Source of the DNA: a virus
Lineage: Duplodnaviria > Caudoviricetes
Virus record (IMG/VR): IMGVR_UViG_3300023108_000002
DNA length: 64,000 bases
Direction: 5' to 3' (one strand)
The notes under the pieces were generated by a model, which did not search any database, was not told where the DNA came from, and worked only from the letters and a program-made list of their open reading frames with translations. This document shows, piece after piece, positions 5,756-22,574 of the stretch. The position numbers were made by a program, and so were the translations under genes. Numbering within the stretch: position 1 is the first letter of the stretch; every line of letters starts with the position of its first letter.

Positions 5756-5767
5756 TAGGAGAATAAT

Positions 5768-6787: not shown

Positions 6788-7113
6788 TGGCAATTTGGGC
6801 TTCTGATTTTATATATCAACAGAGAATGCAGATTTGTAATTCTTGTGAAGAGTTTGTAAAAACATTAAAGGTATGTAAATCTTGTGGATGTTTTATGCCT
6901 GCCAAAGCTAAAATTGCTAATCTAAGATGTCCAAAAGACAAATGGACAGAAGTTTATGGAACAGAAGATCAAGAACCAAAAACTTTGTCTTTACATAAAG
7001 GCTCAGATGATATAGAGAAAAAGAAAGAGTCTTTATTAAGACAGGCACAACATTTAAAAGATGAGTCCGATAGGTTGTTTAGAGAGGCTAAAAAATTAGA
7101 TGGAACTAACTGA
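6787..7113 (+). CDS. Cys-rich hypothetical protein (probable metal-binding)
   Basis: RMQICNSCEE...VCKSCGCFMPAKAK...CPKDKW. Confidence 0.7.
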   Translation: MAIWASDFIYQQRMQICNSCEEFVKTLKVCKSCGCFMPAKAKIANLRCPKDKWTEVYGTEDQEPKTLSLHKGSDDIEKKKESLLRQAQHLKDESDRLFREAKKLDGTN

Positions 7114-8485
7114 ACAAGTTGTTATGAATTGTTTGTTTTCGGATGATGCTTATGTAAGAAAGGCATTGCCGTTTATAGAACGAGAATATTTTCAAACCGA
7201 ATCCAATAAAATTATTTTTGATATGATTAAGAATCATATCGAAAAATATAATGATTTGCCTACCAAAGAATCTTTATTGATTTCTTTAGACGATATAAAT
7301 GTTTCTGAAAATATTTACACAGAATGTTCTCAGTTTATAAATTATCTCCATAATCAAAGAGATGAACATAGAAATAGTGAATGGCAATTGGATGCAACTG
7401 AAAAGTGGTGTCAAGATAGAGCTATATATAATGCGGTGATGAAATCTATCAATATCATTAATGAAGATTCTCCAGAAAAAGGAAACATGCCAAAGATTTT
7501 GAGTGAGGCTCTTGCAGTTTCATTTGATAGTAATATTGGTCATGATTTTATTGATGATTGGGAAGAACGATTTGACTTTTATCAGAGAGTTGAAGAAAAA
7601 ATTCCATTTCATCTTGATATGTTAAATCGTATCACGAAGGGTGGACTTCCAAAGAAAACATTGAATGTTGCACTTGCTGGAACTGGTGTTGGTAAATCTC
7701 TGTTTATGTGTGATTGTGCAGCAAACCATCTTCTAATGGGATATGATGTTTTGTATATTACATGTGAAATGGCAGAAGAAAAGATTGCAGAAAGAATTGA
7801 TGCAAATCTTTTAAACACCAGCATTCAAGATGTTTCTGCAATGGCAAGAGGTACATTTGATAAAAAGATTGATCGAATCAAGAAAAAGACAACTGGTAAA
7901 ATGATTATCAAAGAGTATCCAACAGCTGTCGCAAATGCAAATCATTTCAGACACTTGTTGAATGAGTTATCTTTGAAGAAGAATTTTAGACCAAAAGTTA
8001 TCTATATTGATTACCTAAATATATGTGCATCTGCAAGAATTAAACCTGGCGCTGGTGCAAACTCATATACATTGATAAAATCAATTGCAGAAGAACTAAG
8101 AGGTCTTGCTGTTGAAAATGATGTGCCTATTGTGACTGCAACACAGACGACCAGAGGTGGTTATGCAAACAGTGATGTTGATTTGACTGACACATCTGAG
8201 AGTTTTGGTTTGCCTGCTACAGCAGATTTGATGTTTGCTCTAATATCAACAGAAGAACTTGAAGATATGGGACAGATATTGATTAAACAATTGAAGAATC
8301 GATATAATGATCCAAATGAAAATAAAAGATTTGTTGTTGGAATTGATAGACCAAAAATGAGGTTGTATGATGTTGAAGATGACGCACAGGATGAATTAAT
8401 ACAGGAAAGAACTGATAATACTTATAGAGAAACATTCTCTAATAAATCTAGCAAAAAGATAGGAAAAGTGGAGATTAAACTATGA
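7100..8485 (+). CDS. gp41: replicative DnaB-like helicase
   Basis: Walker A AGTGVGKS, YITCEMAEEKI, IIKEYPT, IDYLNIC, TATQTTR, SESFGLPATAD, KQLKNRY. Confidence 0.97.
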   Translation: MELTEQVVMNCLFSDDAYVRKALPFIEREYFQTESNKIIFDMIKNHIEKYNDLPTKESLLISLDDINVSENIYTECSQFINYLHNQRDEHRNSEWQLDATEKWCQDRAIYNAVMKSINIINEDSPEKGNMPKILSEALAVSFDSNIGHDFIDDWEERFDFYQRVEEKIPFHLDMLNRITKGGLPKKTLNVALAGTGVGKSLFMCDCAANHLLMGYDVLYITCEMAEEKIAERIDANLLNTSIQDVSAMARGTFDKKIDRIKKKTTGKMIIKEYPTAVANANHFRHLLNELSLKKNFRPKVIYIDYLNICASARIKPGAGANSYTLIKSIAEELRGLAVENDVPIVTATQTTRGGYANSDVDLTDTSESFGLPATADLMFALISTEELEDMGQILIKQLKNRYNDPNENKRFVVGIDRPKMRLYDVEDDAQDELIQERTDNTYRETFSNKSSKKIGKVEIKL

Positions 8486-9114
8486 CGGACGAAAAAGAAG
8501 TAGTAAATTTTGAGGTAGACCAAGAAACTTTTAGAGTTAAACCACCAGATGGTAACATGGCTTGGATTTCTGTATGGGACAATGTTTTGTCAGCAGAAAA
8601 GTGTGAAGAAATTATTGAAGAGTTTGAAAAGGCTTCTGAATATCATAAGAAAACAGAACATCCAGAATATAGAAGTTTTACTGAATTGAATTTTTTTGAT
8701 CCAGCACTTCTTTCTGCAAATCCGAAGTTTGAAGAACTATCAATGGAACTTTTAGGGAAAGTTTCCGAATATGTTGAGAGTTATAGACAACACAATAATA
8801 TCGCATTTTTTCCTCAACAATGTCATAATGAAGAAGTGAGAATGAAAAAATATTTTGCTGGTTCTGAGGATGATTTCAAGTATCATGCGGATGTTGGTGA
8901 TTATGCTTCTGCAAGAAGATTTCTTGTGTGCTTCTTTTATCTCAATACTGTAGAGGAAGGGGGAGAGACCGTATTTCCTGATTACAATACAAGTATCTCA
9001 CCAGTACAGGGCAGACTCGCAGTGTTTCCGCCTTTTTGGACGCATCCACACCAAGCTCAGCCCGCTGTATCCAATGATAAGTACATTGTAGGTACATATC
9101 TACACTACATGTAA
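8482..9114 (+). CDS. 2OG-Fe(II) oxygenase (prolyl hydroxylase-like)
   Basis: HxD (YHAD), FFYLN..EEGGET.F, distal His (THPH), KY. Confidence 0.92.
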   Translation: MTDEKEVVNFEVDQETFRVKPPDGNMAWISVWDNVLSAEKCEEIIEEFEKASEYHKKTEHPEYRSFTELNFFDPALLSANPKFEELSMELLGKVSEYVESYRQHNNIAFFPQQCHNEEVRMKKYFAGSEDDFKYHADVGDYASARRFLVCFFYLNTVEEGGETVFPDYNTSISPVQGRLAVFPPFWTHPHQAQPAVSNDKYIVGTYLHYM

Positions 9115-9117
9115 AAT

Positions 9118-9125
9118 TATAAATA
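9118..9125 (+). promoter_or_regulatory. T4-type late promoter
   Basis: Exact TATAAATA in an intergenic region, about 40 nt upstream of ATG 9164. Confidence 0.8.
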
Positions 9126-9163
9126 GTGGTATTAACTCAATATATAAAGGGTAATTCCATTTC

Positions 9164-10492
9164 ATGGCTTATAATTATAGACCAAAATCATCCCAAGATA
9201 TAAAAGATCTTGGGGTGGTAATGAGTAAAGAAAAAGTTTTGGTTTCATTATTCGAAGAAATGAAATCGAACTTTGGAAAATCTTTTGATGAATTTATTAC
9301 AATAGAGACAGGTAGCGCAGGATTCGGAAACGCAAAGATTCTTAATGATTTTAAGAATATGGTCGATATAAATTCATATAAGAAAAAATATATAGGAATA
9401 TCTCTTAAATTTGGAAATGGATCTAATCCAAGTAGTAATGCTCCTACTACTCAACAACAAGAATTAATTACTCTTAAAATATTTGAAGAATTATTATCTA
9501 GTAAAACAAAAAATTACAAGAAATTCGACCAATTGCTTCCGACACTCTTAGAAATATATCCCAATCTTCCATATGAAAAGTCTTGGTATAATTCGTTTGA
9601 ATTGCAATTTAATCAAATCGAAAAAGAAACCAAACTACCCAATAGTACATTTGATGTTTATAATCGTGATGGTGGATTTATGGATTATATATCAAAATTA
9701 GTAAATAGTAAGTTTGATATTGCAAAGAAAGATTCGTGGAATCCTGCTGATATATGGCTTTTAAGGTCGTCTGCTTATAAAAAATACGAAGCGATGTTAA
9801 ATGAAGCGGTTAGTATTCAAGAGTGTAATGCCATATTAGTTTCTGCGTATAATAATACAGACATTGTTGGTATTTCTTTGAAAAAGAATGATGGAAAAAA
9901 ATTAAATTATGATTTAATAAATTTAAAATCTTCTACTAAAGAAAGTTCTGTAGACTATTCAAAGTTTCTTTTAAATATTCCATATAATGAAAAAACAAAG
10001 TCTTTTACTTCGGTTACTAGTCAATTAGAAGTAAAATACCAAAACAAAACTTATCGTATGGGAGTAAAAAGCAATCAGGCTCAAATTGGAAACATCACAT
10101 ATGAGTTTGTTGGAACTGGAGCTGCTGCGTTTTTAGGAAAAGTTCCAAAAGATATGTTGAAACTTGAATTAAAAAAAGATGGATACTTGATGCCAGAACA
10201 CACTCATTATATGAAGTTTGATAGGAAAGATTTTGAAAATAAAATATCGGTTATAAAAAGAAATAAAACACTTTTTACAATTGATGGAAATTTAGATAAA
10301 TTTGTAGACCAACTTGAAGAATCTTGGTCAAAAGGAAGAAGTAAAGATAATGTTGTTATATCTCAAATCGTATGTTTTGCATATATTATAGCAAATTTAT
10401 CATTATCTAGAAGAAAAGAGTTTATAAGGGATTTATTTTTTATGGCACAGAAAAAAGGCCCAATGTTCGGCCCATTTGGAAAGTTATACTAA
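9164..10492 (+). CDS. hypothetical protein with putative PD-(D/E)xK-like nuclease motifs
   Basis: TTQQQE helix, WNPADIW, IVGISLKK. Confidence 0.55.
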   Translation: MAYNYRPKSSQDIKDLGVVMSKEKVLVSLFEEMKSNFGKSFDEFITIETGSAGFGNAKILNDFKNMVDINSYKKKYIGISLKFGNGSNPSSNAPTTQQQELITLKIFEELLSSKTKNYKKFDQLLPTLLEIYPNLPYEKSWYNSFELQFNQIEKETKLPNSTFDVYNRDGGFMDYISKLVNSKFDIAKKDSWNPADIWLLRSSAYKKYEAMLNEAVSIQECNAILVSAYNNTDIVGISLKKNDGKKLNYDLINLKSSTKESSVDYSKFLLNIPYNEKTKSFTSVTSQLEVKYQNKTYRMGVKSNQAQIGNITYEFVGTGAAAFLGKVPKDMLKLELKKDGYLMPEHTHYMKFDRKDFENKISVIKRNKTLFTIDGNLDKFVDQLEESWSKGRSKDNVVISQIVCFAYIIANLSLSRRKEFIRDLFFMAQKKGPMFGPFGKLY

Positions 10493-11748
10493 TGAAAAGT
10501 TTTAGAACACATTTAAACGAATCAAAAGAAGGTAAAAATTTACACCTAGAACATCTTGAAGATGAAATTATTAATAATGGTATTAATGGTGCAAGAGGCG
10601 CAGTAAACTTTTTAAGAGCCCTTAGAGATATGTTATCTGGTTCTGCTACTTCTAAGATCAATATGACCGTAAAGTGGGACGGAGCTCCAGCAATTTTTGC
10701 TGGTACTGATCCTTCCGATGGTAAGTTTTTTGTCGCAAAAAAGTCTGTATTTAATGCAGTGCCATTGTTGTATAAAAGCATAGATGAAATTGAAACAACT
10801 TCCGACTTGTCGCCAAACCTAAAGTCAAAATTTAAAGTTGCATTTTCAGAGTTTTCCAAGTTGGGAATCAAAGATGTTATTCAGGGCGACCTGATGTATA
10901 CTGATGAAAGAGAAGAAAAAACTTTGGATGGCAAAACTTATATTACATTTCAACCAAATACATTAGTATATGCTGTTCAAAAAGACTCTTCTATTGGAAA
11001 AGAAATTTCTGCATCTAAGGTTGGTGTTGTTTGGCATACAACATATAAAGGAAAAGATTTGCAAGGAATGACAGCTTCATTTGGAGTTAATATTTCTGGG
11101 CTCAAGAAAACATCTTCAGTTTGGATGGATGATGCAACATTTAAAGATGTTTCTGGGACTGCTAAGTTTACTGCATCTGAATTGAAAACTCTTAATGGAC
11201 AACTCTCATCTGTCGGTAGAAAATTCAAAAAAATCAAAGCAAATGAATTTAATTCATTTTTAGAAATTCAGAATAAAACATTGGTGAAAGGATTGTCTGG
11301 TGCAAGTTTCAAAACTTTCTTGAATGCATACATCAGAGAAGGAAAGAATATTTCGACAAAAAATTTGAAAAACTTTGATTATTCAATGTATGTCAAAAAT
11401 TATTTTGATAATAAGATAATTTCCAAATTGAAAACAGAAAAATCACGTCAAATAAAAGAAGAATTAAGAGATGAATTGGTCAAAAAACTAATCAAGTTAG
11501 ATTCGGTTGTATATGCGATAGTTGACTTTATGGAAGAAATGATTGCAGCTAAAACTCTAATCGTAAATAAACTAAATAGTATTAAACAAATGACGGATAT
11601 TTTTGTTAGAACTGATAATGGTTATAAAGTAACAAATCCAGAGGGATATGTTGCAATTGACCACACTGGAACTAATGCTGTGAAACTTGTAGATAGAATG
11701 GAATTTAGTTATAACAACTTTACCGCAGCAAAGGCATGGGACAAGTAA
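10492..11748 (+). CDS. putative ATP-dependent ligase-like covalent nucleotidyltransferase with capsid-targeting-like N-terminus
   Basis: KWDG (K61, motif I), QGDLMY, PEGYVAID, VKLVDR; N-terminus MKSFRTHLNE. Confidence 0.6.
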   Translation: MKSFRTHLNESKEGKNLHLEHLEDEIINNGINGARGAVNFLRALRDMLSGSATSKINMTVKWDGAPAIFAGTDPSDGKFFVAKKSVFNAVPLLYKSIDEIETTSDLSPNLKSKFKVAFSEFSKLGIKDVIQGDLMYTDEREEKTLDGKTYITFQPNTLVYAVQKDSSIGKEISASKVGVVWHTTYKGKDLQGMTASFGVNISGLKKTSSVWMDDATFKDVSGTAKFTASELKTLNGQLSSVGRKFKKIKANEFNSFLEIQNKTLVKGLSGASFKTFLNAYIREGKNISTKNLKNFDYSMYVKNYFDNKIISKLKTEKSRQIKEELRDELVKKLIKLDSVVYAIVDFMEEMIAAKTLIVNKLNSIKQMTDIFVRTDNGYKVTNPEGYVAIDHTGTNAVKLVDRMEFSYNNFTAAKAWDK

Positions 11749-12852
11749 ATGGACATAATAAGAATTATAGAAAGACTTAGATTGGAAGAAGGTGTTAACG
11801 ATCCTTCTATTTTTAAAGCAGTATTTCTTGCCGGCGGGCCCGGTTCAGGAAAATCTTTTATTGTGGGAAAAACTGCACTTACTTCTCTTGGAATGAGAGT
11901 TGTAAATTCAGACCCAGCGTTTGAAAAGGCACTTGCAAAGGCTGGACTTGAAATGACACCAGACGATATTTGGTCTGATGCTGGTCAGACTGCCAGAGTT
12001 CGAGCAAAAAAAGTAACATCCAAACAACAATCTCTCTATGTACAGGGTAGATTGGGATTGGTTATTGATGGTACGGGAAAAGATTATGAAAAGATTGCAA
12101 AACAAAAAGCTCAGTTAGAAAAACTTGGTTATGAAACTGCAATGATTTTTGTAAACACAAATTTAGAAACGGCCGTTGCTAGAGATGCCGCGAGAAGCAG
12201 GACGCTTGGTGCCGCCGAAGTTGGTAAGATGTGGAAAGGAGTTCAAGATAACATTGGAAAGTTCCAAAGAGCATTCAAATCAAAAATGTTCATTGTTGAT
12301 AATTCTGATGGCGCAGATTTTGAAAGAGATGTTATGGCAACATATAGAGCAATTTCATCATGGGCAAAGAAAACTCCTGAAAATAAAGCTGCTCAAAAAT
12401 GGATTTCTGGACAAAAGGCAAAAAGAAATATTAAAGAAGAAACTTTAGAGGAACAAAAGTTTTCGGACAAAGAAATCAAAATGGCTATAGGCGTTGCATC
12501 TGATAAGCGTTATAAAGATGGTAATATGACAGGCGCAGTTAAAGCAATTGATAAAATCAAAAAAGGTTTATCTGACCACCCACAAGTTAGGGCTGTTTTG
12601 CGGAGACAAAATGAAAATATTTCTGAAGAAAGAGATTTTGTGGGCGAGACTGCCGAAATGATGATGCGCGACATGATAATCATGCAAAACAAATTAGATG
12701 AACTTATAGATGCAATGGAAGAAGAGATGGGAAGACCTCAGATAGAGAAATTTGAAATCGAACCTTGGATTGTATCTAAAATTACAAAAGCCAAAGATTA
12801 CATCGATTCCGTGTATGATTATAGTATAATGGATGATCTGGATTTTGAATGA
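11749..12852 (+). CDS. P-loop kinase (zeta-toxin/AAA_33-like) fused to two small C-terminal domains
   Basis: FLAGGPGSGKS, NSD, LVIDGTG, lid R..R; C-terminal blocks separated by IKEETLEE and ENISEE. Confidence 0.75.
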   Translation: MDIIRIIERLRLEEGVNDPSIFKAVFLAGGPGSGKSFIVGKTALTSLGMRVVNSDPAFEKALAKAGLEMTPDDIWSDAGQTARVRAKKVTSKQQSLYVQGRLGLVIDGTGKDYEKIAKQKAQLEKLGYETAMIFVNTNLETAVARDAARSRTLGAAEVGKMWKGVQDNIGKFQRAFKSKMFIVDNSDGADFERDVMATYRAISSWAKKTPENKAAQKWISGQKAKRNIKEETLEEQKFSDKEIKMAIGVASDKRYKDGNMTGAVKAIDKIKKGLSDHPQVRAVLRRQNENISEERDFVGETAEMMMRDMIIMQNKLDELIDAMEEEMGRPQIEKFEIEPWIVSKITKAKDYIDSVYDYSIMDDLDFE

Positions 12853-13145
12853 TGCAAAGCTTTGCTCAATTTTTGGACGAAGGAATTAAATTCAAGTTAA
12901 TCCGTGGCAAAGACATGGATGTTTTAAAGATGTGGAATAAGGGCGATAACAAATGGGTAGAATTAAGAGGCAAGCCTGGTTTTGAAACCAGATATGACCC
13001 TAAAGACCCATTACATAAAGCAATAACTGCGTTAGGAAAATCTGCTAACATATCAGATTTTATGAATGGAGATGAAGTAAGTATTAATCCAAAACATCCA
13101 GACGCTAAGAAGGCGTTGAAAACAATACAGGGTTTGATGAAATGA
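12849..13145 (+). CDS. hypothetical protein with capsid-targeting-like N-terminus
   Basis: (M)MQSFAQFLDE start; overlaps both neighbours (ATGA). Confidence 0.7.
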   Translation: MMQSFAQFLDEGIKFKLIRGKDMDVLKMWNKGDNKWVELRGKPGFETRYDPKDPLHKAITALGKSANISDFMNGDEVSINPKHPDAKKALKTIQGLMK

Positions 13146-13678
13146 AAAGTTTTAGACAGTTTCAAAATATTGAAGAGATGGTAGAATATCATGTTATTAG
13201 TGAAATTCCATTATTAGATAATGTATTTCGTTTAGGATCGAATGCATTTTTTGAAACTTTTAATATTGCAAGAAAAATGTATGAAGAAGGAAAACTAGAA
13301 TTCGATTCATATGATATAGAAATTCTTGAAACAGATATTGGAAAGTGGGAATTGTTTGAAAATGAACATGTCCCGCTCGATTGTCCTTTTTTGGTTGAGG
13401 AAGAAAAAGATGTAGAATTAAATTCTCCCAAAAGAGGCGGTAACAAGAAATACTATGTTTATGTGAAAAATGAAAAGGGAAATGTTATAAAGGTTGAGTT
13501 TGGAGATACAACTGGATTGACTGCAAAAATTAATAACAAAGAAGCTGCTAGAAATTTTGCAGCAAGACATAATTGCGATCAGAAAAACGACAAAACAAAA
13601 CCTGGCTACTGGGCATGTAGATTGCCTAGATATGCAAAACAACTTGGATTGAGTGGAGGCGGAAGCTATTTTTGGTGA
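13142..13678 (+). CDS. two-domain hypothetical protein with capsid-targeting-like N-terminus
   Basis: MKSFRQFQNIEE start; C-terminal KKYYVYVKN...V.FG...ARHNCD...GYWAC domain after LVEEE. Confidence 0.75.
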   Translation: MKSFRQFQNIEEMVEYHVISEIPLLDNVFRLGSNAFFETFNIARKMYEEGKLEFDSYDIEILETDIGKWELFENEHVPLDCPFLVEEEKDVELNSPKRGGNKKYYVYVKNEKGNVIKVEFGDTTGLTAKINNKEAARNFAARHNCDQKNDKTKPGYWACRLPRYAKQLGLSGGGSYFW

Positions 13679-13682
13679 TACT

Positions 13683-13958
13683 ATGAGACCTTATATGGAA
13701 TGGATGGAAGAAGAAAGCTGTATTTTAAGAGAATTTAATGAGGATGTAGATAGTGAAGAATTGGTTTGGCATAGAGACAAAAATGATAGACTAGTTCGTA
13801 TTATGGAATCTGATGGATGGTTTTTTCAATTTGAAGATGAATTTCCTTTTGAGTTATTGAAAGGAATGTGGTTGAAGATAGATAACCACAGATATCATAG
13901 AGTAATAAAAGGCGATAACAATGGGAGTTTATTAATCAAAATTTACGAAGGGGGATAG
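13683..13958 (+). CDS. cupin-like small protein
   Basis: ELVWHRD...GWFFQ...YHRVIKG; start refined to ATG 13683. Confidence 0.55.
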   Translation: MRPYMEWMEEESCILREFNEDVDSEELVWHRDKNDRLVRIMESDGWFFQFEDEFPFELLKGMWLKIDNHRYHRVIKGDNNGSLLIKIYEGG

Positions 13959-13959
13959 A

Positions 13960-14181
13960 ATGTTTCATCAGTTGCTTGATATTCATTTATCTAATATAAA
14001 AAAGTTTGATGATGTAATGAATACCAATTATTTACAAGAATATAAAAAAATAATGTGGCATGCCCTGAATGAATTTGAAAAACCGTTGATGAGTGCTGTT
14101 TTTACAAATGGTAGACAGTGGAGAAAACTCAAAGACCAATTTTTGTATGTGCCAGAGGAAGGAACTAAAAATGACAGATGA
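13960..14181 (+). CDS. hypothetical protein
   Basis: 73-aa ORF with GGGG SD, packed between neighbours. Confidence 0.6.
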   Translation: MFHQLLDIHLSNIKKFDDVMNTNYLQEYKKIMWHALNEFEKPLMSAVFTNGRQWRKLKDQFLYVPEEGTKNDR

Positions 14182-14551
14182 CATAGATTTTGGATTTACT
14201 GCCGTTGACGAAGAAGAGCTGAGAAGTATTGCACCTTCTCCGGCATCTAATGAAGTGTCAGAAAAACTTGAAAGCACTGGAGAAGGACTCAAGTTATTAG
14301 AATATAAAATGGACAATTTAGTTGATAAACTTGGTGAAATGTTAGACGAAGTTGAAACGGTGAAGGAATTTTATAATAACGAAAAAGTAATTGTAAATTC
14401 TAAGTTGAAAGATGTTGAAAATCTAATTTTACCTCTACTAAATAATTTGATGAAAAATAAAGAAAAAGAGTATATTTACTGGCCAAACCGCGAAGCAATT
14501 ATCACTCAACAAATAAATCGTATAACGAATATAACAAGAGCAGAAGAATGA
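14171..14551 (+). CDS. conserved hypothetical coiled-coil protein
   Basis: Start refined to MTDDIDFGFTAVDE; PLLNNL...YIYWPNR motif. Confidence 0.75.
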   Translation: MTDDIDFGFTAVDEEELRSIAPSPASNEVSEKLESTGEGLKLLEYKMDNLVDKLGEMLDEVETVKEFYNNEKVIVNSKLKDVENLILPLLNNLMKNKEKEYIYWPNREAIITQQINRITNITRAEE

Positions 14552-17013
14552 AAGATACTGTAGTTTTTACATTTGGTAGATTTAATCCACCAACAACTGG
14601 ACATGAAAAACTAATAGAGAAAGTTGCTGCCGTCGCAAGAAGCGAAAAGGCGGATTTTATGGTATTTCCAAGTCAATCTACAAATCCTAAAAAAGACCCT
14701 CTAGATTTTAGAACAAAAGTTTCTTATATGAAGAAAATGTTTCCAAAATATTCTAAGAATATCATGTCCAATAAAGATGCAAAATCTGCTTTTAATATCG
14801 TTCCTATGCTATATAAGATGGGATATGAAAGATGTATTATGGTTGTAGGTGGCGATAGAGTTTCAGAATTTGAAACAATATTGAATAAGTACAATGGTGT
14901 TTCTGGTAGTCATGGTTTCTATGAGTTTGAAAATGGAGTTGAAATTGTTTCTGCCGGAGAAAGAGATGAAAATGCTACTGATGTAAGTGGTATGTCTGCA
15001 TCTAAAATGAGAGCAGCTGCAGCTGCTAATAGATACGAAGATGAAAAGATTGGTGGAAAAATTCTTCAAGGATTCAAGAGTGGACTTCCAAGTAAATTTG
15101 AAAGAACGCATGGAAAGAAACTCTTTGCAGACCTAAGAAAAGCAATGAACCTCAGCGAAGAAATGATCGAATTTCTTAATTCCGTTGGAGATGATTTGCT
15201 AGAGTTTATGCAAACAGATTATATGGGATATGTAGACGATGCAACTGATAACAACCTGTACAACGAGATATATGAAGAATTTTTTGCGGAAAGAAAGGTT
15301 GCTCAGGACAAAGATATCGAAGATAGAGAAGGTACACAACCTAAAAAATACTACGCAAAAGATGCAGACGGCGATGAAATGTCAAAGTCAACAAAACAAG
15401 CTCGCGCAAGACATTTCGCAAAATATGGAAAAAAATCAGACGATTCAGACAGTTCTTACAAACCAGCACCTGGCGATGCGAATGCAAAAACAAAACCCTC
15501 AAAATACACCAACCTATATCATAAAATGTATGGAGAGGATGTATCTCAAAAACAAATAGACGATTTGGAAAAATTTGCAGATAGAATGCTTGCAAAATAT
15601 GATATTGATATTACATTTACAAGACATTTTGTTGATAGAATGAATGACAATAGAAACGATCCAGAGATCAAAGTTGCAGAACTTCAAAAGTTTTTCAAAA
15701 AGATTCAGAAGAAAAAAGGTTCTCAGATCAAGGCGAACCCCGATATCGAAGCAGTTCTCAAAGACATGTCAACTAACTTAAATCTGCCTGTAGTTATCAA
15801 CTATAAGAATGGTGAGTTTGAAGTTGTACATAAAACAATCATGCGTAAGAAAAACTTCTCTACATCAAGTAAAGAATTAAAATACGAAGAGGTAGATATG
15901 AATATTGAAGAAAAACTTAACGAAATATCTAACATGCGCCGTTTGAAGCTTGTCAGCAAAATTAAGAATTCTGGTGTTGTAAAACAGGGTTCTATGTCTA
16001 AGGATAATAAAAAAGAAGCAGCAAATCCAGCTCAACAAGCTGCCATTGCTATTGCAAAGAAAAAATCGGGAAAATACGATGATGATGGAAATCTTAAAGA
16101 ATTGACATCAGCAGAAAAAAAACTTATTGATAAAATGTATGACAAAAAAGGTAACTTGACGCCATTGGGTAAAAAAGTTATGGAATATGGTAAGAAAAAT
16201 GAAAAACTAGGCAAAGATGCTGATGCTGGTGATTACATCGATGATTTTAGAAAATCAGATGCTCCGCAATTCAAAGGTAAGTCCGATGAAAAAATAAGAC
16301 AAATGGCGGTTGCCGCATATCTTAAAGCAAAAGAAAAAAATGAAACTGTTGATGAAAAAATTGCAACCAATAAAGAAAGAATGAATATGGCTGCTCTTGA
16401 TGCGTTAAAAAAATTGATTGCATCAAAAGGTGATAAACAGTCTTTAAAATCATATGTATATACTATCGCTAAATCTTTCAGTGGAGTGTCGGGTAAAGAT
16501 TTAGAGACTCTTTATAGAAATTCTATTAAAGAACAAGTTGAACTTGATGAAGAAAGATGGAAATATAAGGGCGACACAAATTACAAAGTAGGTGGTAATC
16601 TAAGATATGATGATAAGTTAGATTACAAACTTTCAAAGGCAGATGCTGATATTTTAAACAAATACATGAAACAAGCTAAAAATGATGCAGCACGTAGTAA
16701 AGTGTGGAATATGTTCTGGGATTCAAAAGAAACAGGTAATACGGCCAAGGGCCCAGAAAAAGCGATCAAATTTGCCAAAAATTCTATCAAAGAAGAACTA
16801 GATGAACAAATCGAGGGACTTAAAAAGAAAGCAGAAAAGTCGGGTATTTCATATGGTATTCTAAAAAAGGTATATGACAGAGGTATGGCTGCTTGGAAAA
16901 CAGGACATAGGCCAGGAACTACTCCACAACAGTGGGCATTTGCTAGAGTCAATTCATTTATCACTGGCGGTGGCGCACGGAAGTCGGATGCAGACCTTTG
17001 GGCTGAAAGATAG
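14548..17013 (+). CDS. multidomain protein: N-terminal HIGH-superfamily (cytidylyltransferase-like) nucleotidyltransferase plus several small domains
   Basis: FGRFNPPTTGHEKL, VVGGDRV, SAGERD, SASKMR; later FTRHFVDR domain and C-terminal KVYDRGMAAWKTGHRPG..QQWAFARVNSF domain. Confidence 0.85.
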   Translation: MKDTVVFTFGRFNPPTTGHEKLIEKVAAVARSEKADFMVFPSQSTNPKKDPLDFRTKVSYMKKMFPKYSKNIMSNKDAKSAFNIVPMLYKMGYERCIMVVGGDRVSEFETILNKYNGVSGSHGFYEFENGVEIVSAGERDENATDVSGMSASKMRAAAAANRYEDEKIGGKILQGFKSGLPSKFERTHGKKLFADLRKAMNLSEEMIEFLNSVGDDLLEFMQTDYMGYVDDATDNNLYNEIYEEFFAERKVAQDKDIEDREGTQPKKYYAKDADGDEMSKSTKQARARHFAKYGKKSDDSDSSYKPAPGDANAKTKPSKYTNLYHKMYGEDVSQKQIDDLEKFADRMLAKYDIDITFTRHFVDRMNDNRNDPEIKVAELQKFFKKIQKKKGSQIKANPDIEAVLKDMSTNLNLPVVINYKNGEFEVVHKTIMRKKNFSTSSKELKYEEVDMNIEEKLNEISNMRRLKLVSKIKNSGVVKQGSMSKDNKKEAANPAQQAAIAIAKKKSGKYDDDGNLKELTSAEKKLIDKMYDKKGNLTPLGKKVMEYGKKNEKLGKDADAGDYIDDFRKSDAPQFKGKSDEKIRQMAVAAYLKAKEKNETVDEKIATNKERMNMAALDALKKLIASKGDKQSLKSYVYTIAKSFSGVSGKDLETLYRNSIKEQVELDEERWKYKGDTNYKVGGNLRYDDKLDYKLSKADADILNKYMKQAKNDAARSKVWNMFWDSKETGNTAKGPEKAIKFAKNSIKEELDEQIEGLKKKAEKSGISYGILKKVYDRGMAAWKTGHRPGTTPQQWAFARVNSFITGGGARKSDADLWAER

Positions 17014-17020
17014 ATAAATA
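17013..17020 (+). promoter_or_regulatory. possible late promoter (1 mismatch)
   Basis: GATAAATA, about 22 nt upstream of ATG 17043. Confidence 0.4.
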
Positions 17021-17042
17021 GTAAAAAAACTGGAGAACTCTC

Positions 17043-19001
17043 ATGACTAATAGGAAAAATATTCCCGAAGAAATTTTAGACGATGATGTAGCAGATTTCA
17101 TCGGCGCAGCTTCTGCTGCGAAGGCGGCAGGAAAAAAGAAATTTAAATTTGGTGATAAAGAATATCCTGTCACAATTTCTGATAAAATTGCAAAGACTGT
17201 TAATAAAGAAGCCGTTGTTGGTATTATGCAAAACAAGGACGATGAAAAGGTTTCCAAGGGTTCACAAAAAATGGGAAGTGCAAAAAATGAATCTTTAGAT
17301 GGAAGAACTAAAGCATTTAAAGAAAAATTGCAAAAGCTTTCCTATTCAGAGAAGAAAAAAGATGACCTAGAAAACGAGAAGAATTTTGATGGCCGCGGCA
17401 AAGAGTTCAAAGAAAAACTAGTCAAACTTGGATATAAAAAGCCTACTATGGAAGAAAGACTTCTAGAAAAAATGGGCAAATCTTCAACTGGTTATGATTT
17501 GTATCACAAAGATTTTTCATCTGCAATGAAACATGCATACGAATTTGCAAAGAAAAAATATGGTATTGATATTGATCCAAAAGAAATTGATGATAAAGTT
17601 GCCACTGGGCCTCGCAAACCAACATCTGGTAAAACCAATTCTTATCGTTTACTTGATAAAGATGGTAAAAAAGCAGTTCAAATTCAAGTATACAATATGG
17701 ACAATAAGAAATATGAATTGAATATGTATAAAGAGGAAAAGGAATTTGAACCTCATATGATGTACGACCCAAAAACTGGTAAAGGTTATAAAGCCGAAAA
17801 ACCAGAAGATCATGAACGTATGTCTAAGATGGGATATACTCATGAAAAACCAAAAATGGAAGAATTTCATTTACATGAAGCATCAATTCAAATGGTAGCA
17901 AGAGATCTCGAATCATATGCTAAAAAAGATAAAAAGGGTATGGATTATGATGATTTCATGAAAGCAGCAAAAATGATGAAAGATAATCAATTGAAAGCTT
18001 TGATTTCATTTGTGAATGATTTGGACACAGAACCAAGAGAAAAAATCCTCATGATTGTTAAGAATGTTCTTGGTAAGAAAACTGCTGAGAAAATGTTTGG
18101 GGTAAGATTTTTTGATAGTAAAATTAATGAGATTAAAGAAATGAAACAGCCCTTCGTAGTTGTTGATACTGCTGATGGTAACAAAGTCGTAGGTATGGCT
18201 TCTGATGAAAAGGGAGCAAAATCAATTATTTCCACTTCTCAACTTCCACCAATGAAAATTAAAGACAAGAAAACTTTGAAGATTGTAAAGACAAGCAAAA
18301 AACAAGATATTGGATTTCCTGTGAAAGAAGATCAAGAGGTCGATGAAGTCTCTCAAGATACTTTACGTAATTATCATGGTAAAGCAGGTGCTCAACTTAA
18401 TAAATTAAGAGATAAAAATGCTAAAGGAAAGTTAACTTTTGCTGATCTTAAAAAGGGCCAAAACAGAGCAAAAGGTCTTAATAGAGCTGCTAATAAGATG
18501 GAAGAGATTGAACTAAAAGAATTTGAAACAGAGATTGATTTACAAGAAAAACTTTCTCCAGCCCAAATCAAAAAATTAAAAAGTGAATTTGAAGACCTGA
18601 GAGGAAAGAAAATCTCTGCACAGTCAGGAATGAAACTTTCCAAAGCTTTGGACAAATTGGACAAGGAACAAACGATTGCTCTTGTTAATTTAGATTTGCC
18701 ATTCGTTTCTACTCTTGCTGTTAGCAAACTAATGATGAATTTTAACATGTCTCCAAGCGAAGTCAATAAAATAATTGATGGAAAAGATGAATCATTTGAT
18801 CCAAAACTCAAAGAAGAACTAAAAATTAAAGAATTGATTGAAAGTTCTGATAAAAAAGATGCAGAGGAAATGAAAGAAATTGTTCTTGCAATGAACCCTA
18901 AATATAATAAAAAACAGGTTCAAAAAGAAGTTGAAAAAATGGCGATGGAGAAATATGGAAATTCCTCTCGCGCTAAAAAGATTGCTAGCTACGTTAAATA
19001 A
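17043..19001 (+). CDS. large Lys/Glu-rich multidomain protein (candidate internal head polyprotein)
   Basis: 652 aa made of short blocks separated by (L/I/V)xE-rich linkers; internal duplication DGRTKAFKEKLQKL / DGRGKEFKEKLVKL. Confidence 0.7.
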   Translation: MTNRKNIPEEILDDDVADFIGAASAAKAAGKKKFKFGDKEYPVTISDKIAKTVNKEAVVGIMQNKDDEKVSKGSQKMGSAKNESLDGRTKAFKEKLQKLSYSEKKKDDLENEKNFDGRGKEFKEKLVKLGYKKPTMEERLLEKMGKSSTGYDLYHKDFSSAMKHAYEFAKKKYGIDIDPKEIDDKVATGPRKPTSGKTNSYRLLDKDGKKAVQIQVYNMDNKKYELNMYKEEKEFEPHMMYDPKTGKGYKAEKPEDHERMSKMGYTHEKPKMEEFHLHEASIQMVARDLESYAKKDKKGMDYDDFMKAAKMMKDNQLKALISFVNDLDTEPREKILMIVKNVLGKKTAEKMFGVRFFDSKINEIKEMKQPFVVVDTADGNKVVGMASDEKGAKSIISTSQLPPMKIKDKKTLKIVKTSKKQDIGFPVKEDQEVDEVSQDTLRNYHGKAGAQLNKLRDKNAKGKLTFADLKKGQNRAKGLNRAANKMEEIELKEFETEIDLQEKLSPAQIKKLKSEFEDLRGKKISAQSGMKLSKALDKLDKEQTIALVNLDLPFVSTLAVSKLMMNFNMSPSEVNKIIDGKDESFDPKLKEELKIKELIESSDKKDAEEMKEIVLAMNPKYNKKQVQKEVEKMAMEKYGNSSRAKKIASYVK

Positions 19002-19011
19002 GGAGAAAAAA

Positions 19012-19329
19012 ATGGATTTACCAAGTTGGGCAAGGCCAAAAAACTGGATGAAGAATGCAGTTGCAACTAATCGCGGTTGGGTCAACGAAAAAACTGGAGA
19101 GATGTATAAAAAGCACTCAAATTTGAAAGACAAAATTGATGCACTTGCGCCTGCAAAACCAGCACCAAAACCAAAACCAAAACCAACATCAGCACCGAAA
19201 GATGAAGGTGTAGATCTTTCAAGTATGACAAAGGACGAATTGGAAGAGTTGGGTAGAGAACATGGAATTGAGTTGGACAAGAGAAAAACTAAAAAGGATT
19301 TAGTTGCTGAAATCAAAGACGTAATATAA
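19012..19329 (+). CDS. hypothetical protein with Pro/Lys linker and C-terminal Rho-N/HeH-like motif
   Basis: AGGAG SD before ATG 19012; MTKDELEELGREHGIELDKRKTKKDLV. Confidence 0.65.
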   Translation: MDLPSWARPKNWMKNAVATNRGWVNEKTGEMYKKHSNLKDKIDALAPAKPAPKPKPKPTSAPKDEGVDLSSMTKDELEELGREHGIELDKRKTKKDLVAEIKDVI

Positions 19330-19349
19330 TATTATAAAGAACAATAATA

Positions 19350-19745
19350 ATGGATCACTTTGAAATTTTGAATGAAAACAATGTTTTCAATTATCAGATG
19401 AAATCTTATGATAATCCTCAGTGTCATAGCATGGAAGAGTTTCTTGACGATATGAAACGTATCAAATATGTCAAGAGACTCTTTCACAAATATCACACTA
19501 AAGGTTTATTAAAAGAGAGATTGATAATAAATCATCTGGTAATTTTGTTTAATGTTTTGGGAAATGTTCCGTGTAGTAGAATTTTATTTTTGAAAATTGA
19601 CAAAAATCAACACTACATCTTAGCAAGTTTTTTGCACTTTTTACACAAACTTCCAAAAGAAGTAAAAGGAATTGAGGGTAGAACTATAAATTTAGAAGAA
19701 ATTGTTCTTGATAAATATATATTAGAAACATTAGGAAAAATTTAA
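19350..19745 (+). CDS. conserved T4-like hypothetical protein
   Basis: YDNPQC...EEF.DD.KRIKYVKRLF...LKERLIINHLVILFNV family motif. Confidence 0.8.
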   Translation: MDHFEILNENNVFNYQMKSYDNPQCHSMEEFLDDMKRIKYVKRLFHKYHTKGLLKERLIINHLVILFNVLGNVPCSRILFLKIDKNQHYILASFLHFLHKLPKEVKGIEGRTINLEEIVLDKYILETLGKI

Positions 19746-19746
19746 G

Positions 19747-20409
19747 ATGGCCTCAGTATTTAATGCATATCTAGCATATCAATTTATAAAAATTCTCACT
19801 ACGCCGTGGGAAGAAACTGAAGCATATAAAAACGGCGTGGTTGATGCATCTGGAAAACAACTTAAAAAATCTGGTGATTTAAAAACGGATGCAGAAAAAA
19901 AATCTTTCACCATTTTTCATAAAATCATTTTCAATTTAAAAAGAATTCTTTCAAAGTTTCCAGGCGGAAAATCTAGAATTGCATCTTACGCAGCTGCTAT
20001 GGCACTTCTTAGAGAAAATAATGAAAATCTAAAAGAAGAAGATTTAAATCTTCTTGAAAATCTTCTTATAGATTATATCAATAAACAAGAGGAAGAATTA
20101 TATGAAAGTGGTATTCTTATCGAAGAGATGGGGTCGGGAGGAATAGCTAATTCGGTTGGTGATGGTTCGAAGTTAGGAAACTTTATAAACAATCCATATA
20201 AATTTTCTGGTATGCAAATTTTCAAAGTCGATCCAGATAGTTTTGATAAATTTATGAAAGGTAAGAAAAAGTATTCTCGTTGGGATAATTTTATTCGCAG
20301 AGAAGATGCTTTACATATAAGAAAATATATAAAGAACAACCCAACTAAAAGAGTTGTGTTGCAGGATTCACAAAACGGTTCTATGATTATCTTACACAGA
20401 GATTTGTAA
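19747..20409 (+). CDS. conserved T4-like hypothetical protein with C-terminal extension
   Basis: YQFIKILTTPWEETEAYKNG.VD..GK...FHK...NLKR...GGKS..ASYAAA..LLRE. Confidence 0.8.
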   Translation: MASVFNAYLAYQFIKILTTPWEETEAYKNGVVDASGKQLKKSGDLKTDAEKKSFTIFHKIIFNLKRILSKFPGGKSRIASYAAAMALLRENNENLKEEDLNLLENLLIDYINKQEEELYESGILIEEMGSGGIANSVGDGSKLGNFINNPYKFSGMQIFKVDPDSFDKFMKGKKKYSRWDNFIRREDALHIRKYIKNNPTKRVVLQDSQNGSMIILHRDL

Positions 20410-20801
20410 TGTTTGGTATTTTCAGTACAGCAAAAATAGCGGTAGTAGTTGTCGCTCTCACAGTAGCCGGCGGGGGCTATTGGTATGTACAAAAACTACA
20501 AACTCAGGTAAAAACTCTAGAGGCAAACCAAGTTATCTTGAGTGGTGCTATGGAGTCAAAAGATTCAGAAATTGCAAGATTGAATGCAGATATTAAAGAA
20601 GTAAAAGAAATCAATAATCGAATTTCTACAGAAAGTAAAGTCTTGAACGGACAAGTCGATGAACTTAGGAGAAAACTTTCAGAACACGATTTGGGGTTCT
20701 TGGCAGAAAACAAACCTGGCCTTGTAGAAAAAATAATAAATAATGATATACAAAATACTTTGAAAAGTGATTTAGAAGATATTATGGAAACAGAAAAATG
20801 A
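20409..20801 (+). CDS. putative inner-membrane spanin (Rz-like)
   Basis: N-terminal TM helix followed by a coiled coil; overlaps the downstream lipoprotein gene. Confidence 0.65.
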   Translation: MFGIFSTAKIAVVVVALTVAGGGYWYVQKLQTQVKTLEANQVILSGAMESKDSEIARLNADIKEVKEINNRISTESKVLNGQVDELRRKLSEHDLGFLAENKPGLVEKIINNDIQNTLKSDLEDIMETEK

Positions 20802-21148
20802 ATAAATATATACAATTGACTCTTATATTATTTATTGGCTTGAGTATCACAGGATGTAGTAGTACACAGGAAAAGATTGTTACTGAAGAAGTTCTAGTAA
20901 ACAAAGTTCCTCTTGATCTTGAAATGCCAAAACCAGTGACATGGCAAAATTTTGAATTTGTTGTGGTTACTCCTGATAACTATCAGGAAACTGTTGATAA
21001 ATTGAAATCCGGCGGTAAGAGTATTGCGCTGTTTGCATTAGATGAAGATTCTTATAAGAATTTATCTATTGTAGTAAATGATATGAAAAGATATATGGGT
21101 GAACAGAAAATTATAATTTTAGAATATAAAAAATATTATGAACAATAA
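20798..21148 (+). CDS. putative outer-membrane spanin lipoprotein (Rz1-like)
   Basis: Signal peptide with lipobox ITGC; Pro-containing; directly after the i-spanin candidate. Confidence 0.7.
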   Translation: MNKYIQLTLILFIGLSITGCSSTQEKIVTEEVLVNKVPLDLEMPKPVTWQNFEFVVVTPDNYQETVDKLKSGGKSIALFALDEDSYKNLSIVVNDMKRYMGEQKIIILEYKKYYEQ

Positions 21149-21171
21149 TAAAAATAATAAGGCGCAAACTA

Positions 21172-21453
21172 ATGACCGATTATGATTCTAGATTAGAAAG
21201 AATAGAAAGCAAGATTGATCAACTTGCAGATGCAATGATATCTATGGCTCGGGCCGAAGAAAAAATGACTGCTTTACGAACCGACCATGAAAAAATGTAT
21301 GAAAGAATAAACAAACTTTCTATAAAAATGGATGAATTAGATCGGATGGCGCGAGAAAACGCAAGAACAACTGCTATATTTTTGAAGGCATTTTGGATAG
21401 TTTTTGCTGCAGCTGTATCATCTGTCGCAGCACATTTTTATCTCTGGCAATAG
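21172..21453 (+). CDS. coiled-coil protein with C-terminal TM helix (XhlA-like/holin-like)
   Basis: RLERIESKIDQL... followed by a hydrophobic C-terminal segment. Confidence 0.5.
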   Translation: MTDYDSRLERIESKIDQLADAMISMARAEEKMTALRTDHEKMYERINKLSIKMDELDRMARENARTTAIFLKAFWIVFAAAVSSVAAHFYLWQ

Positions 21454-21461
21454 AATAATTA

Positions 21462-21490
21462 TTGACAACCCCTAAAAAATAGTATAATAT
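21462..21490 (+). promoter_or_regulatory. sigma70-type promoter for primase
   Basis: TTGACA at 21462; TATAAT at 21483 or TAATAT at 21485 (17-nt spacer). Confidence 0.65.
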
Positions 21491-21513
21491 GAACTTTACT
21501 TACATGTGGAGTT

Positions 21514-22539
21514 GTGATGATATATATTGATCGAGCATACATTCAGAGATTATCCCCACAATTAGAAGGTTTCGTACAGAAGAAAAATAATCTGTACAAC
21601 TTCCGTTGTCCTATCTGTGGCGATTCTCAGAAAAAAACCTACAAGATGCGTGGGTTTATTTACGAAAAAAAGAATAGTTTTAGATATATGTGTCATAATT
21701 GTGGCGCAAGTATGTCTTTTGCTAATTTCATAAAAGAACAAAATCATTCTTTATATGAAGAATATGTAATGGAAAAGTGGAAAGAAGGACAAAACAAATC
21801 TGGCCCTACTCAAAATCTTCAAAACACAGAAAAAGATGTTAAGTATGATTTTGACTTCAAGCCTAAATTTTCTACGAAATGTGTTTTTGAATATGGAGAG
21901 AAAATATCCGATTTGCATCCAACACACCCATCTAGAATGTATTGTGAGAAAAGAAAACTTCCAAAACTAGATGTATTGTATCATACACCAGATTTCAAAT
22001 TTGTAGTAGATAAGGTGGCAAAAGGATATAATATTCCTAAAAATGAAAAAAGAATAGTCATTCCATTCTTTAATGAGAAATGTGAACTGATTGCCTTACA
22101 AGGAAGGAGTATGGACCCTAAAAATCCTATGCGATATATCACCATTAAGGTAAAAGATGTCCCAAAAGTATATGGATTGGATAGAATTGATCCAGCAAAA
22201 ACTACATATGTAACAGAAGGCCCTTTTGATTCTCTTTTTCTTGATAACTGTCTTGCTATGGCAGGTAGTGATGTAGATAAAAAATATTTCAAATCATTTT
22301 CGGATATTGTTTTTATATACGATAATGAACCAAGAAACAGAGAGATAGTGAAGAAAATGGAACGGACTATTGACTCAGGATTTTCTATTTTTATATGGCC
22401 AAAAAATATTAAAGAAAAAGATATTAATGATGTAATATTGTCTGGAATGGACACTTTAGAATTACAATCACTTATAAGTATAAACACCTACAAAGACCTA
22501 CAAGCAAAACTCACTTTTTCTGCTTGGAAAAAATGTTAA
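21514..22539 (+). CDS. gp61: DNA primase
   Basis: Zn finger FRCPICGDS...CHNCG; Toprim VTEGPFDSLFL, YDNEPRN, KDINDVIL. Confidence 0.96.
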   Translation: MMIYIDRAYIQRLSPQLEGFVQKKNNLYNFRCPICGDSQKKTYKMRGFIYEKKNSFRYMCHNCGASMSFANFIKEQNHSLYEEYVMEKWKEGQNKSGPTQNLQNTEKDVKYDFDFKPKFSTKCVFEYGEKISDLHPTHPSRMYCEKRKLPKLDVLYHTPDFKFVVDKVAKGYNIPKNEKRIVIPFFNEKCELIALQGRSMDPKNPMRYITIKVKDVPKVYGLDRIDPAKTTYVTEGPFDSLFLDNCLAMAGSDVDKKYFKSFSDIVFIYDNEPRNREIVKKMERTIDSGFSIFIWPKNIKEKDINDVILSGMDTLELQSLISINTYKDLQAKLTFSAWKKC

Positions 22540-22574
22540 TTACCACCAAAAAATATCAAAAAAGAGGATAAGCT

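Follow-up and report, generated by a model that had tools for sequence, protein, structure and literature searches.

A late-promoter-headed gene block encoding proteins with probable T4-type capsid targeting leaders in an uncultured salt-marsh phage

Gene block and its transcription signals

This study investigated a block of genes at positions 9118-21453 of a 64,000-nucleotide stretch of viral DNA (IMG/VR record IMGVR_UViG_3300023108_000002), hereafter the window, which comprises bases 30244-94243 of a 203,815-bp phage genome. The block is probably a late-transcribed cargo module of the phage head, in which at least three products (the DUF6267 protein, a 97-aa protein, and a 178-aa protein) carry an N-terminal leader of the type of the phage T4 capsid targeting sequence (CTS). 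For these three proteins the CTS reading has good support, and for the locus it has indirect support. The features of the block are listed in Table 1.

The window has a G+C content of approximately 33% and encodes a T4-type DNA polymerase, UvsX, gp41 helicase, gp61 primase, ribonucleotide reductase, and baseplate and tail-fibre proteins. The block lies 3' of the gp41 and 2OG-Fe(II) oxygenase genes (7100-9114) and 5' of the gp61 gene (21514). The equivalent gp41-gp61 slot was located in S-PM2 (d138-d148), S-SZBM1 (_142-133), S-SM1 (SSM1_188-198), Melnitz (genes 15-31), and HTVC008M (gp126-139). The block genes have their nearest named kin in Kyanoviridae, namely Methylophilales phage Melnitz (DUF6267 at 57% identity), Pelagibacter phage HTVC008M, and several hundred cyanomyoviruses; a megablast search of the block against GenBank phages returned no match. 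The genes from 9164 to 21453 lie on the plus strand throughout, with overlaps or gaps of no more than 60 nt, and no terminator-like site was found on the plus strand inside the block.

A sequence-only reading of this DNA had placed a late promoter at 9118, at the head of a run of coupled plus-strand genes, and the genome-wide placement of the octamer TATAAATA bears this out. The count alone revealed no excess over chance (6 copies in the window, 6.7 expected). Approximately 20 of the 27 copies in the genome, including all six in the window, are located 18-42 nt 5' of a same-strand open reading frame (ORF) start and outside long ORFs. Elsewhere in the genome, the genes headed by the octamer encode a gp13/14-like head-tail adaptor, the sheath, the tube, scaffold gp22, and major capsid protein gp23. 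This placement 5' of structural genes identifies the octamer as the late promoter of this phage. Relaxed copies (GATAAATA) precede the genes at 17043 and 19747, and the octamer or close variants were also found inside the homologous block of S-SM1, S-SZBM1, S-CREM2, and HTVC008M.

With a late promoter at 9118 and a sigma-70-like site before the primase gene, the block is thus bracketed by late and early-type signals; the latter site appears to mark a switch back to early-type transcription after the block. Scans of 6500-22500 for sigma-70 promoters and terminators revealed no excess over the shuffled expectation. Three salt-marsh metatranscriptome libraries contained short contigs 100% identical to the phage, which fell on both the replication genes and the block (5000-23000); these contigs indicate presence only, rather than strand, start, or level, and may reflect DNA carry-over. 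Phage DNA was found at full length in about ten salt-marsh metagenomes. The open papers and supplements gave no usable entry on the expression timing of the cyanophage orthologues.

Table 1. Features of the gp41-gp61 block, in window coordinates
Feature	Position	Strand	Remarks
T4-type late promoter TATAAATA	9118..9125	+	38 nt 5' of the first block gene (ATG at 9164)
442-aa protein (phrog_1462)	9164..10492	+	untagged here
DUF6267 protein, 418 aa	10492..11748	+	Pfam 1.4e-98; leader MKSFRTHLNE
P-loop kinase (Zeta_toxin/AAA_33), 367 aa	11749..12852	+	Zeta_toxin 36.4 bits (cutoff 22.3); AAA_33 34.1 bits (cutoff 27)
Basic protein, 97 aa	12852..13145	+	leader MQSFAQFLDE-G; 18 K+R, 13 D+E
178-aa protein (phrog_7595)	13142..13678	+	leader MKSFRQFQNIEE
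91-aa protein	13683..13958	+	leader MRPYMEWMEE, tentative
Two small ORFs	13960-14181 (73 aa), 14168-14551 (127 aa)	+	untagged
821-aa multidomain protein	14548..17013	+	HIGH nucleotidyltransferase 2-208; domain 332-441; DUF5824 737-813
Relaxed late-promoter-like site GATAAATA	17013..17020	+	22 nt 5' of the 652-aa gene
Highly charged protein, 652 aa	17043..19001	+	137 K+R, 113 D+E; untagged
105-aa protein	19012..19329	+	weak Rho_N-like C-terminus
DUF7207 protein	19350-19745	+	
220-aa relative of Aeh1p012-type T4-GC_1491 protein	19747-20409	+	likeness by eye only
Remainder of block, including coiled-coil small proteins	19350..21453	+	ends before the sigma-70-like promoter
Sigma-70-like site TTGACA-17-TAATAT	21462-21490		in the 60-nt gap before primase gp61 (21514)

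Leader peptides in the phage and its relatives

In T4, genetic analysis of the leader MKTYQEFIAE assigned residues 4 and 7 to targeting and residues 8 and 10 to processing (PMC9026906). We built the pattern M..[FYW]..[FHYW][LIVM].E from this published result and required an open frame of at least 40 codons. A search of the 203,815-bp genome in six frames returned three matches, at 10492, 12852, and 13683, every one of which was an ORF start within the block. At the per-residue rate observed in long ORFs (1.2e-4), 0.037 matches would be expected among approximately 300 N-termini (Poisson P ~8e-6), a probability that leaves aside the clustering of the three matches within 3.2 kb. The equivalent DNA pattern was applied to the complete T4 genome as a positive control and recovered ipII and ipIII, both starting with MKTYQEFIAE.

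The only real match in the T4 genome scan beyond ipII and ipIII was gene 61.1 (L088:1167-1331, minus strand). It encodes the uncharacterised 54-aa gp61.1, which starts with MKTFKEFIKE, a leader nearly identical to the IPII/IPIII targeting sequence. Its position, flanked by genes 41 and 61, is the slot of the present block.

The three N-termini first described for 10492, 12852, and 13142 were recovered unchanged in the ORF translations. The ORF at 10492 begins with MKSFRTHLNE (10492-10521), that at 12849/12852 with (M)MQSFAQFLDE followed by Gly, and that at 13142 with MKSFRQFQNIEE, which fits a looser pattern that allows the Glu up to two residues further on. Of the targeting residues, Phe4 is present in all three leaders and position 7 is His, Phe, and Phe, respectively. 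The predicted processing site reads LNE-S at 10492 and LDE-G at 12852, and 13142 has the variant IEE-M. The tag can be summarised as Met, an aromatic residue at position 4, a hydrophobic or aromatic residue at 7, Leu or Ile at 8, and Glu at 10-12.

The genome also encodes a gp21-type prohead protease (Peptidase_S77, 2.6e-35; G000:C1:10700-11338), the gene of which adjoins the portal, scaffold, and capsid genes, and the head scaffolding protein gp22 (phrog_237, 1.7e-69). A complex prediction for scaffold gp22 with the 97-aa tagged protein scored 0.02, which is no answer and counts neither way. The looser pattern additionally caught two genes elsewhere in the genome, namely a 197-aa ORF starting with MPKFRDIFDVLEE (G000:C1:126505, plus strand) and the major capsid gene gp23, starting with MHDFNAIQIQE (G000:C1:12500, plus strand). 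In T4, an N-terminal piece of gp23 is taken off by the protease.

Conservation of the motif across homologues had been set as a test in the sequence-only reading, and the motif was found to be conserved. We identified 318 IMG/VR loci with a DUF6267 relative and retrieved 80 of them. Among 26 distinct DUF6267 5' ends of the same leader length, Phe4 (TTT/TTC), Leu/Ile8 (five codons), and Glu10 (GAA/GAG) were present in all 26, and position 7 was hydrophobic or aromatic (F/M/I/Y/H/V/L) in 24, while positions 2, 5, 6, and 9 each showed 6 to 8 different residues. Because Phe4, Leu/Ile8, and Glu10 remain constant across synonymous codons while the other positions drift, these findings indicate selection on the peptide rather than on the RNA. 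In DUF6267, the leader has been added to the domain: the Pfam model begins at residue 16, residues 1-16 have a predicted local distance difference test score (pLDDT) of 35-50 in the AlphaFold2 (AF2) model, and cyanophage DUF6267 proteins start at the conserved HLEHLED core without a leader.

The tag is also enriched in the genes that follow. In the IMG/VR loci, it was found on 43 of 294 distinct plus-strand ORFs from DUF6267 onward, on 7 of 298 ORFs upstream of DUF6267 (all seven being the gene immediately before it), whereas the 339 minus-strand ORFs had none (Fisher p = 3e-8). Similar leaders occur on unrelated proteins in Melnitz (genes 15, 17, 18, and 27) and HTVC008M (gp126 and gp139). 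Most cytidylyltransferase polyproteins in the IMG/VR loci bear a leader, such as MKKFSELIEA or MRRFLDLYEA, and a further leader-bearing family in these loci starts with MTRY.KTM.EA. Outside the gp41-gp61 slot, two adjacent S-SZBM1 hypotheticals of 105 and 165 aa (S-SZBM1_191 and _192; L087:1812-2626, minus strand) start with MKSFKSFLSE and MKTFKQYITE; both are internal-protein candidates and neighbour S-SZBM1_190, a structural protein of the virion.

The similar N-termini might instead be functionless, as relics of duplication or recombination between neighbouring genes or as products of a codon or structure constraint at A-rich translation starts. In keeping with this alternative, the leaders of 10492 and 13142 share their first 15 nucleotides, and MK starts are common, with 14 ORFs starting with M[KRQ].[FYW], many of them spurious. 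Nevertheless, the three key residues have stayed constant through synonymous and non-synonymous codon changes at loci of 55-84% identity, the tag is absent from the minus-strand ORFs and from all 915 internal Met positions examined, and it occurs on non-homologous proteins in Melnitz, HTVC008M, S-SM1, S-SZBM1, S-CREM2, and T4. We consider a functionless origin of the leaders highly improbable.

Proteins encoded by the block

The DUF6267 protein contains an invariant motif I (K61-W62-D63-G64) and an invariant E384-G385(-Y-V) and K398 in 24 sequences, in the order KxDG, EG, and motif V-like lysine. We propose from these motifs, and weakly from the fold, that DUF6267 is an RNA-ligase-like covalent nucleotidyltransferase. 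The motif order is shared with the ATP-dependent RNA ligases T4 Rnl2, Trypanosoma brucei REL1, Naegleria NgrRnl, and fungal Trl1. In contrast to these ligases, DUF6267 has a helical insertion of approximately 135 residues (228-362) between the early motifs and motifs IV/V, and the spacing of the downstream motifs from motif I is approximately 320 residues; its second motif V lysine is replaced (K-L-V-D-R), and it lacks an OB or other known C-terminal domain.

The AF2 model of DUF6267 (pLDDT 73.6) was compared with known structures. In VIA-align, the best non-helical matches were RNA ligase adenylyltransferase domains (REL1, T4 Rnl2, NgrRnl, and Trl1), with Z scores of 5.5-6.7, a value below the level that parts true relatives from chance, and a root-mean-square deviation of 3.9-5.5 A over 163-201 residues. 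Foldseek against the PDB gave no match at E <= 0.001, and the best ligase had an E of ~0.09 and a probability of 0.54; PDB sequence and profile searches with DUF6267 returned nothing meaningful. Because the Foldseek result is not significant, the term ligase-like rests on the motifs and weakly on the fold. In S-PM2, DUF6267 and HIGH nucleotidyltransferase domains are fused in the 591-aa protein d138 (L002:6992-8767), as in phrog_455, and this fusion suggests that the two domains may work together.

The gene next after DUF6267 encodes a P-loop kinase, an arrangement that recalls Trl1 or the T4 Pnkp/Rnl1 pair. Its Walker A motif is GGPGSGKS (residues 29-36). A weaker match was obtained to the phrog_505 polynucleotide kinase (1.2e-5), and PDB sequence and profile searches found only adenylate kinase at E 0.5. 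The N-terminus of the kinase is MDIIRIIERLRLEEG. The earlier description of an extension ending in L-E-E-G before the kinase domain is correct; as a tag, this extension gives only a weak L-x-E-G match and is ambiguous. The N-termini of the orthologues end in [LY]-x-E-G-[IV]-N-D.

The 12852 and 13142 proteins correspond to modules of longer proteins in the relatives. The 12852 module is internal in 650-1147-aa cytidylyltransferase proteins of Melnitz and many uncultured relatives, and cytidylyltransferase polyproteins of Melnitz and of many IMG/VR loci have the 13142 module as their C-terminal domain. In two IMG/VR polyproteins (L053 and L045), the junction before the 12852-like module reads HTKKFKQMYGE. 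In the present phage, these modules are split into separate genes, each with its own leader, as would be predicted for a portable address tag. A feature search of the ESM Atlas with the 178-aa protein found only unnamed viral clusters.

The HIGH domain of the 821-aa protein matched CTP_transf_like (25.9 bits, cutoff 21), with an HxGH-type motif FGRFNPPTTGHEKL at residues 9-22. NCBIfam NMNAT models matched only far below their cutoffs, and PDB sequence and profile searches with the nucleotidyltransferase domain returned nothing meaningful. The charged linker of this protein contains two internal tag-like motifs, LYNEIYEEFFAE (237-248) and LYHKMYGE (323-330), and such linker motifs in the polyproteins would fit cleavage by the head protease.

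The tagged proteins might be packaged and yet serve a structural or DNA-condensing role, as T4 IPII and IPIII do, rather than forming a kit of enzymes active once injected. The 97-aa protein is basic as well as small, the large proteins of the block are highly charged, and small basic internal proteins are present in T4 heads in hundreds of copies (PMC9026906). By contrast, the KxDG, EG, and K set of DUF6267 is intact and invariant in the 24 sequences, and the kinase Walker A motif and the nucleotidyltransferase HxGH-type motif are retained, which would argue for catalytic function. A purely structural role appears improbable.

The first gene encodes the 442-aa protein, a member of a large viral family (789 proteins) with the conserved residues E100, K189-D190, P194-A-D196, and S238-L-K240, which recall the PD...SxK active sites of restriction enzymes. 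In other loci, its positional counterparts upstream of DUF6267 start with MENFLSYISE or MEGFKKYLRE. Pfam and NCBIfam gave no match, and PDB sequence and profile searches returned nothing meaningful. With its AF2 model (pLDDT 84.9), Foldseek against the PDB returned nothing at E <= 0.001; in fold searches with VIA-align and the AFDB clusters, the best relevant match was a Cas4-family protein (Z 4.4), and the AFDB relatives were all uncharacterised. In the ESM Atlas, the feature search found only unnamed viral clusters, and the feature lead RE_HpaII (0.86) was below the trust level. Because these matches are either weak or to uncharacterised proteins, the restriction-endonuclease idea stays a lead.

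Farther downstream, modules homologous to the 652-aa protein occur in the relatives within proteins that start with MTRY.KTM.EA..E. The 105-aa protein contains a low-complexity Pro/Lys/Ala repeat, APAKPAPKPKPKPTSAPK (19152-19198), just before its Rho_N-like domain. A homology of this protein to the S-PM2 virion structural protein d145 was considered and was unsupported; with the Melnitz "S-layer domain" protein it has only a 23-residue N-terminal motif in common. The protein encoded at 19747 has no homology to the virion-detected S-CREM2 gp160.

Virion evidence and the capsid-cargo interpretation

Mass spectrometry of related phages has placed tagged proteins of this slot in virions. The S-SM1 protein SSM1_190 (T4-GC190) was flagged with proteomic data from virions (PMC3037559), S-SZBM1_140 and its neighbour _139 were detected in virions (PMC9146016), and S-CREM2 gp154 was detected alongside gp155, gp156, and gp160, which belong to its block (PMC10665884). 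Our translations revealed that SSM1_190 starts with MKKFSAFLNE and is the sole genuine pattern match in the S-SM1 genome, that S-SZBM1_140 starts with MRFRQFIIE, and that gp154 starts with MKNFSSFLTE, its gene lying directly 3' of a terminator and TATAAATA. These cyanomyovirus cytidylyltransferase/NMNAT-like proteins have a HIGH domain orthologous to that of the 14548 protein, occupy the gp41-gp61 slot, and adjoin DUF6267; they carry a leader and were seen in virions, whereas the 14548 protein is leaderless. For SSM1_189, the untagged DUF6267 neighbour (T4-GC71), the supplements searched gave no entry for that cluster.

It could be argued that the block encodes ordinary cytoplasmic enzymes of late or middle infection, involved in nucleotide, NAD, or RNA-end metabolism, with the leader acting as a docking site for an enzyme complex, a timing degron, or a chaperone handle, and that detection in virions reflects co-purification. 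The block does lie within the replication region, the cytidylyltransferase of this phage is untagged, and virion peptide counts were low (2-3 for the cytidylyltransferase). Nevertheless, the four positions at which the leader agrees with the T4 CTS are exactly those defined by T4 genetics, the same protein was found in three independent virion preparations, the one genuine match in the S-SM1 genome is the virion protein SSM1_190, and late promoters of the structural-gene type precede the genes. We consider the cytoplasmic-enzyme explanation unlikely.

The capsid-cargo interpretation draws on the T4 system of the CTS-bearing internal proteins IPI, IPII, IPIII, and Alt and the protease gp21. In both systems, a leader of 10-12 residues has an aromatic residue at 4, a hydrophobic or aromatic residue at 7, Leu or Ile at 8, and Glu at 10, a Peptidase_S77 gene is present in the genome, late promoters head the genes, and the leader is borne by unrelated cargo, which in T4 includes an enzyme, Alt. 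The present locus differs in that it lies between gp41 and gp61 and not at the T4 ip loci, and in that its predicted cargo includes a ligase-like enzyme of 418 aa, along with modules present as polyproteins in the relatives. Since the leader is very similar to the T4 head-loading tag, the tagged products are probably packed into the virion.

By analogy with T4, the leader would dock each protein on the scaffolding core during prohead assembly, and the gp21-type serine protease of the phage would then cut after the leader Glu. The mature proteins would remain in the head with the DNA and would probably be ejected into the next host. In the relatives, the same modules are fused behind a tagged cytidylyltransferase/NMNAT-like domain, as long polyproteins with tag-like linkers. 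From this comparison, we infer that the tagged proteins of this phage are packaged, cleaved, and injected, and that they may have a role at infection.

Several observations weigh against this interpretation or narrow it. The 14548 protein begins with MKDTVVFTFGRF, directly with its catalytic domain and without a leader, as it does in the closest sub-clade. The kinase leader is weak, and its N-terminal extension is a possible propeptide. The leader at 13683 depends on an uncertain start codon, with an in-frame GTG at 13653, and is tentative. Part of the within-genome similarity of the leaders may reflect recent recombination, because 10492 and 13142 share 15 nt. Since the 9114-9164 interval has no terminator, early or middle read-through from the upstream genes is possible. 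The virion evidence concerns the tagged cytidylyltransferase orthologues of relatives, and the window phage is uncultured; moreover, abundant proteins may co-purify with virions, a caveat raised by the authors of a detecting study (PMC10665884). The nuclease-like domains named in the sequence-only reading found no support in the Pfam, PDB profile, or fold searches. Of the head-packaged enzymes listed in that reading, the ligase-like DUF6267 protein does carry a CTS-type leader, but the HIGH nucleotidyltransferase is untagged and the kinase signal is weak.

The same reading had regarded the block as an undescribed system, which is too strong. The virion cytidylyltransferase has been published (PMC3037559, PMC9146016, PMC10665884), and the CTS is a classic T4 mechanism (PMC9026906). 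The three virion papers do not mention a capsid targeting sequence, and among the papers searched, "capsid targeting sequence" and "cyanophage" occurred together only in a T4 review. What is new is the link of the CTS with the virion-borne cytidylyltransferase and the identities of the cargo.

A broader proposal is that marine T4-like phages (pelagiphages, Melnitz, cyanomyoviruses, and the present salt-marsh phage) inject a conserved, modular, pre-loaded set of enzymes comprising an RNA-ligase-like adenylyltransferase, a polynucleotide/nucleoside-type kinase, and an NMNAT-like nucleotidyltransferase, which would bear a T4-type address tag, be cut apart by the head protease, and be active before phage gene expression. 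In this full form, the proposal is rather unlikely. If true, the injected set might reseal tRNAs cut by anticodon nucleases or restore NAD+ against NAD-depleting defences.

The T4-type tag would offer a mechanism for the presence in cyanomyovirus virions of the "cytidylyltransferase" and neighbouring hypotheticals, which have been reported without an entry route. It would also allow the capsid cargo of abundant ocean phages to be predicted cheaply from sequence, and an RNA-ligase-like assignment is proposed for DUF6267, a widespread family. The delivery of enzymes besides DNA by marine T4-like phages thus becomes a testable idea in the cultured relatives HTVC008M, Melnitz, S-SM1, and S-CREM2.

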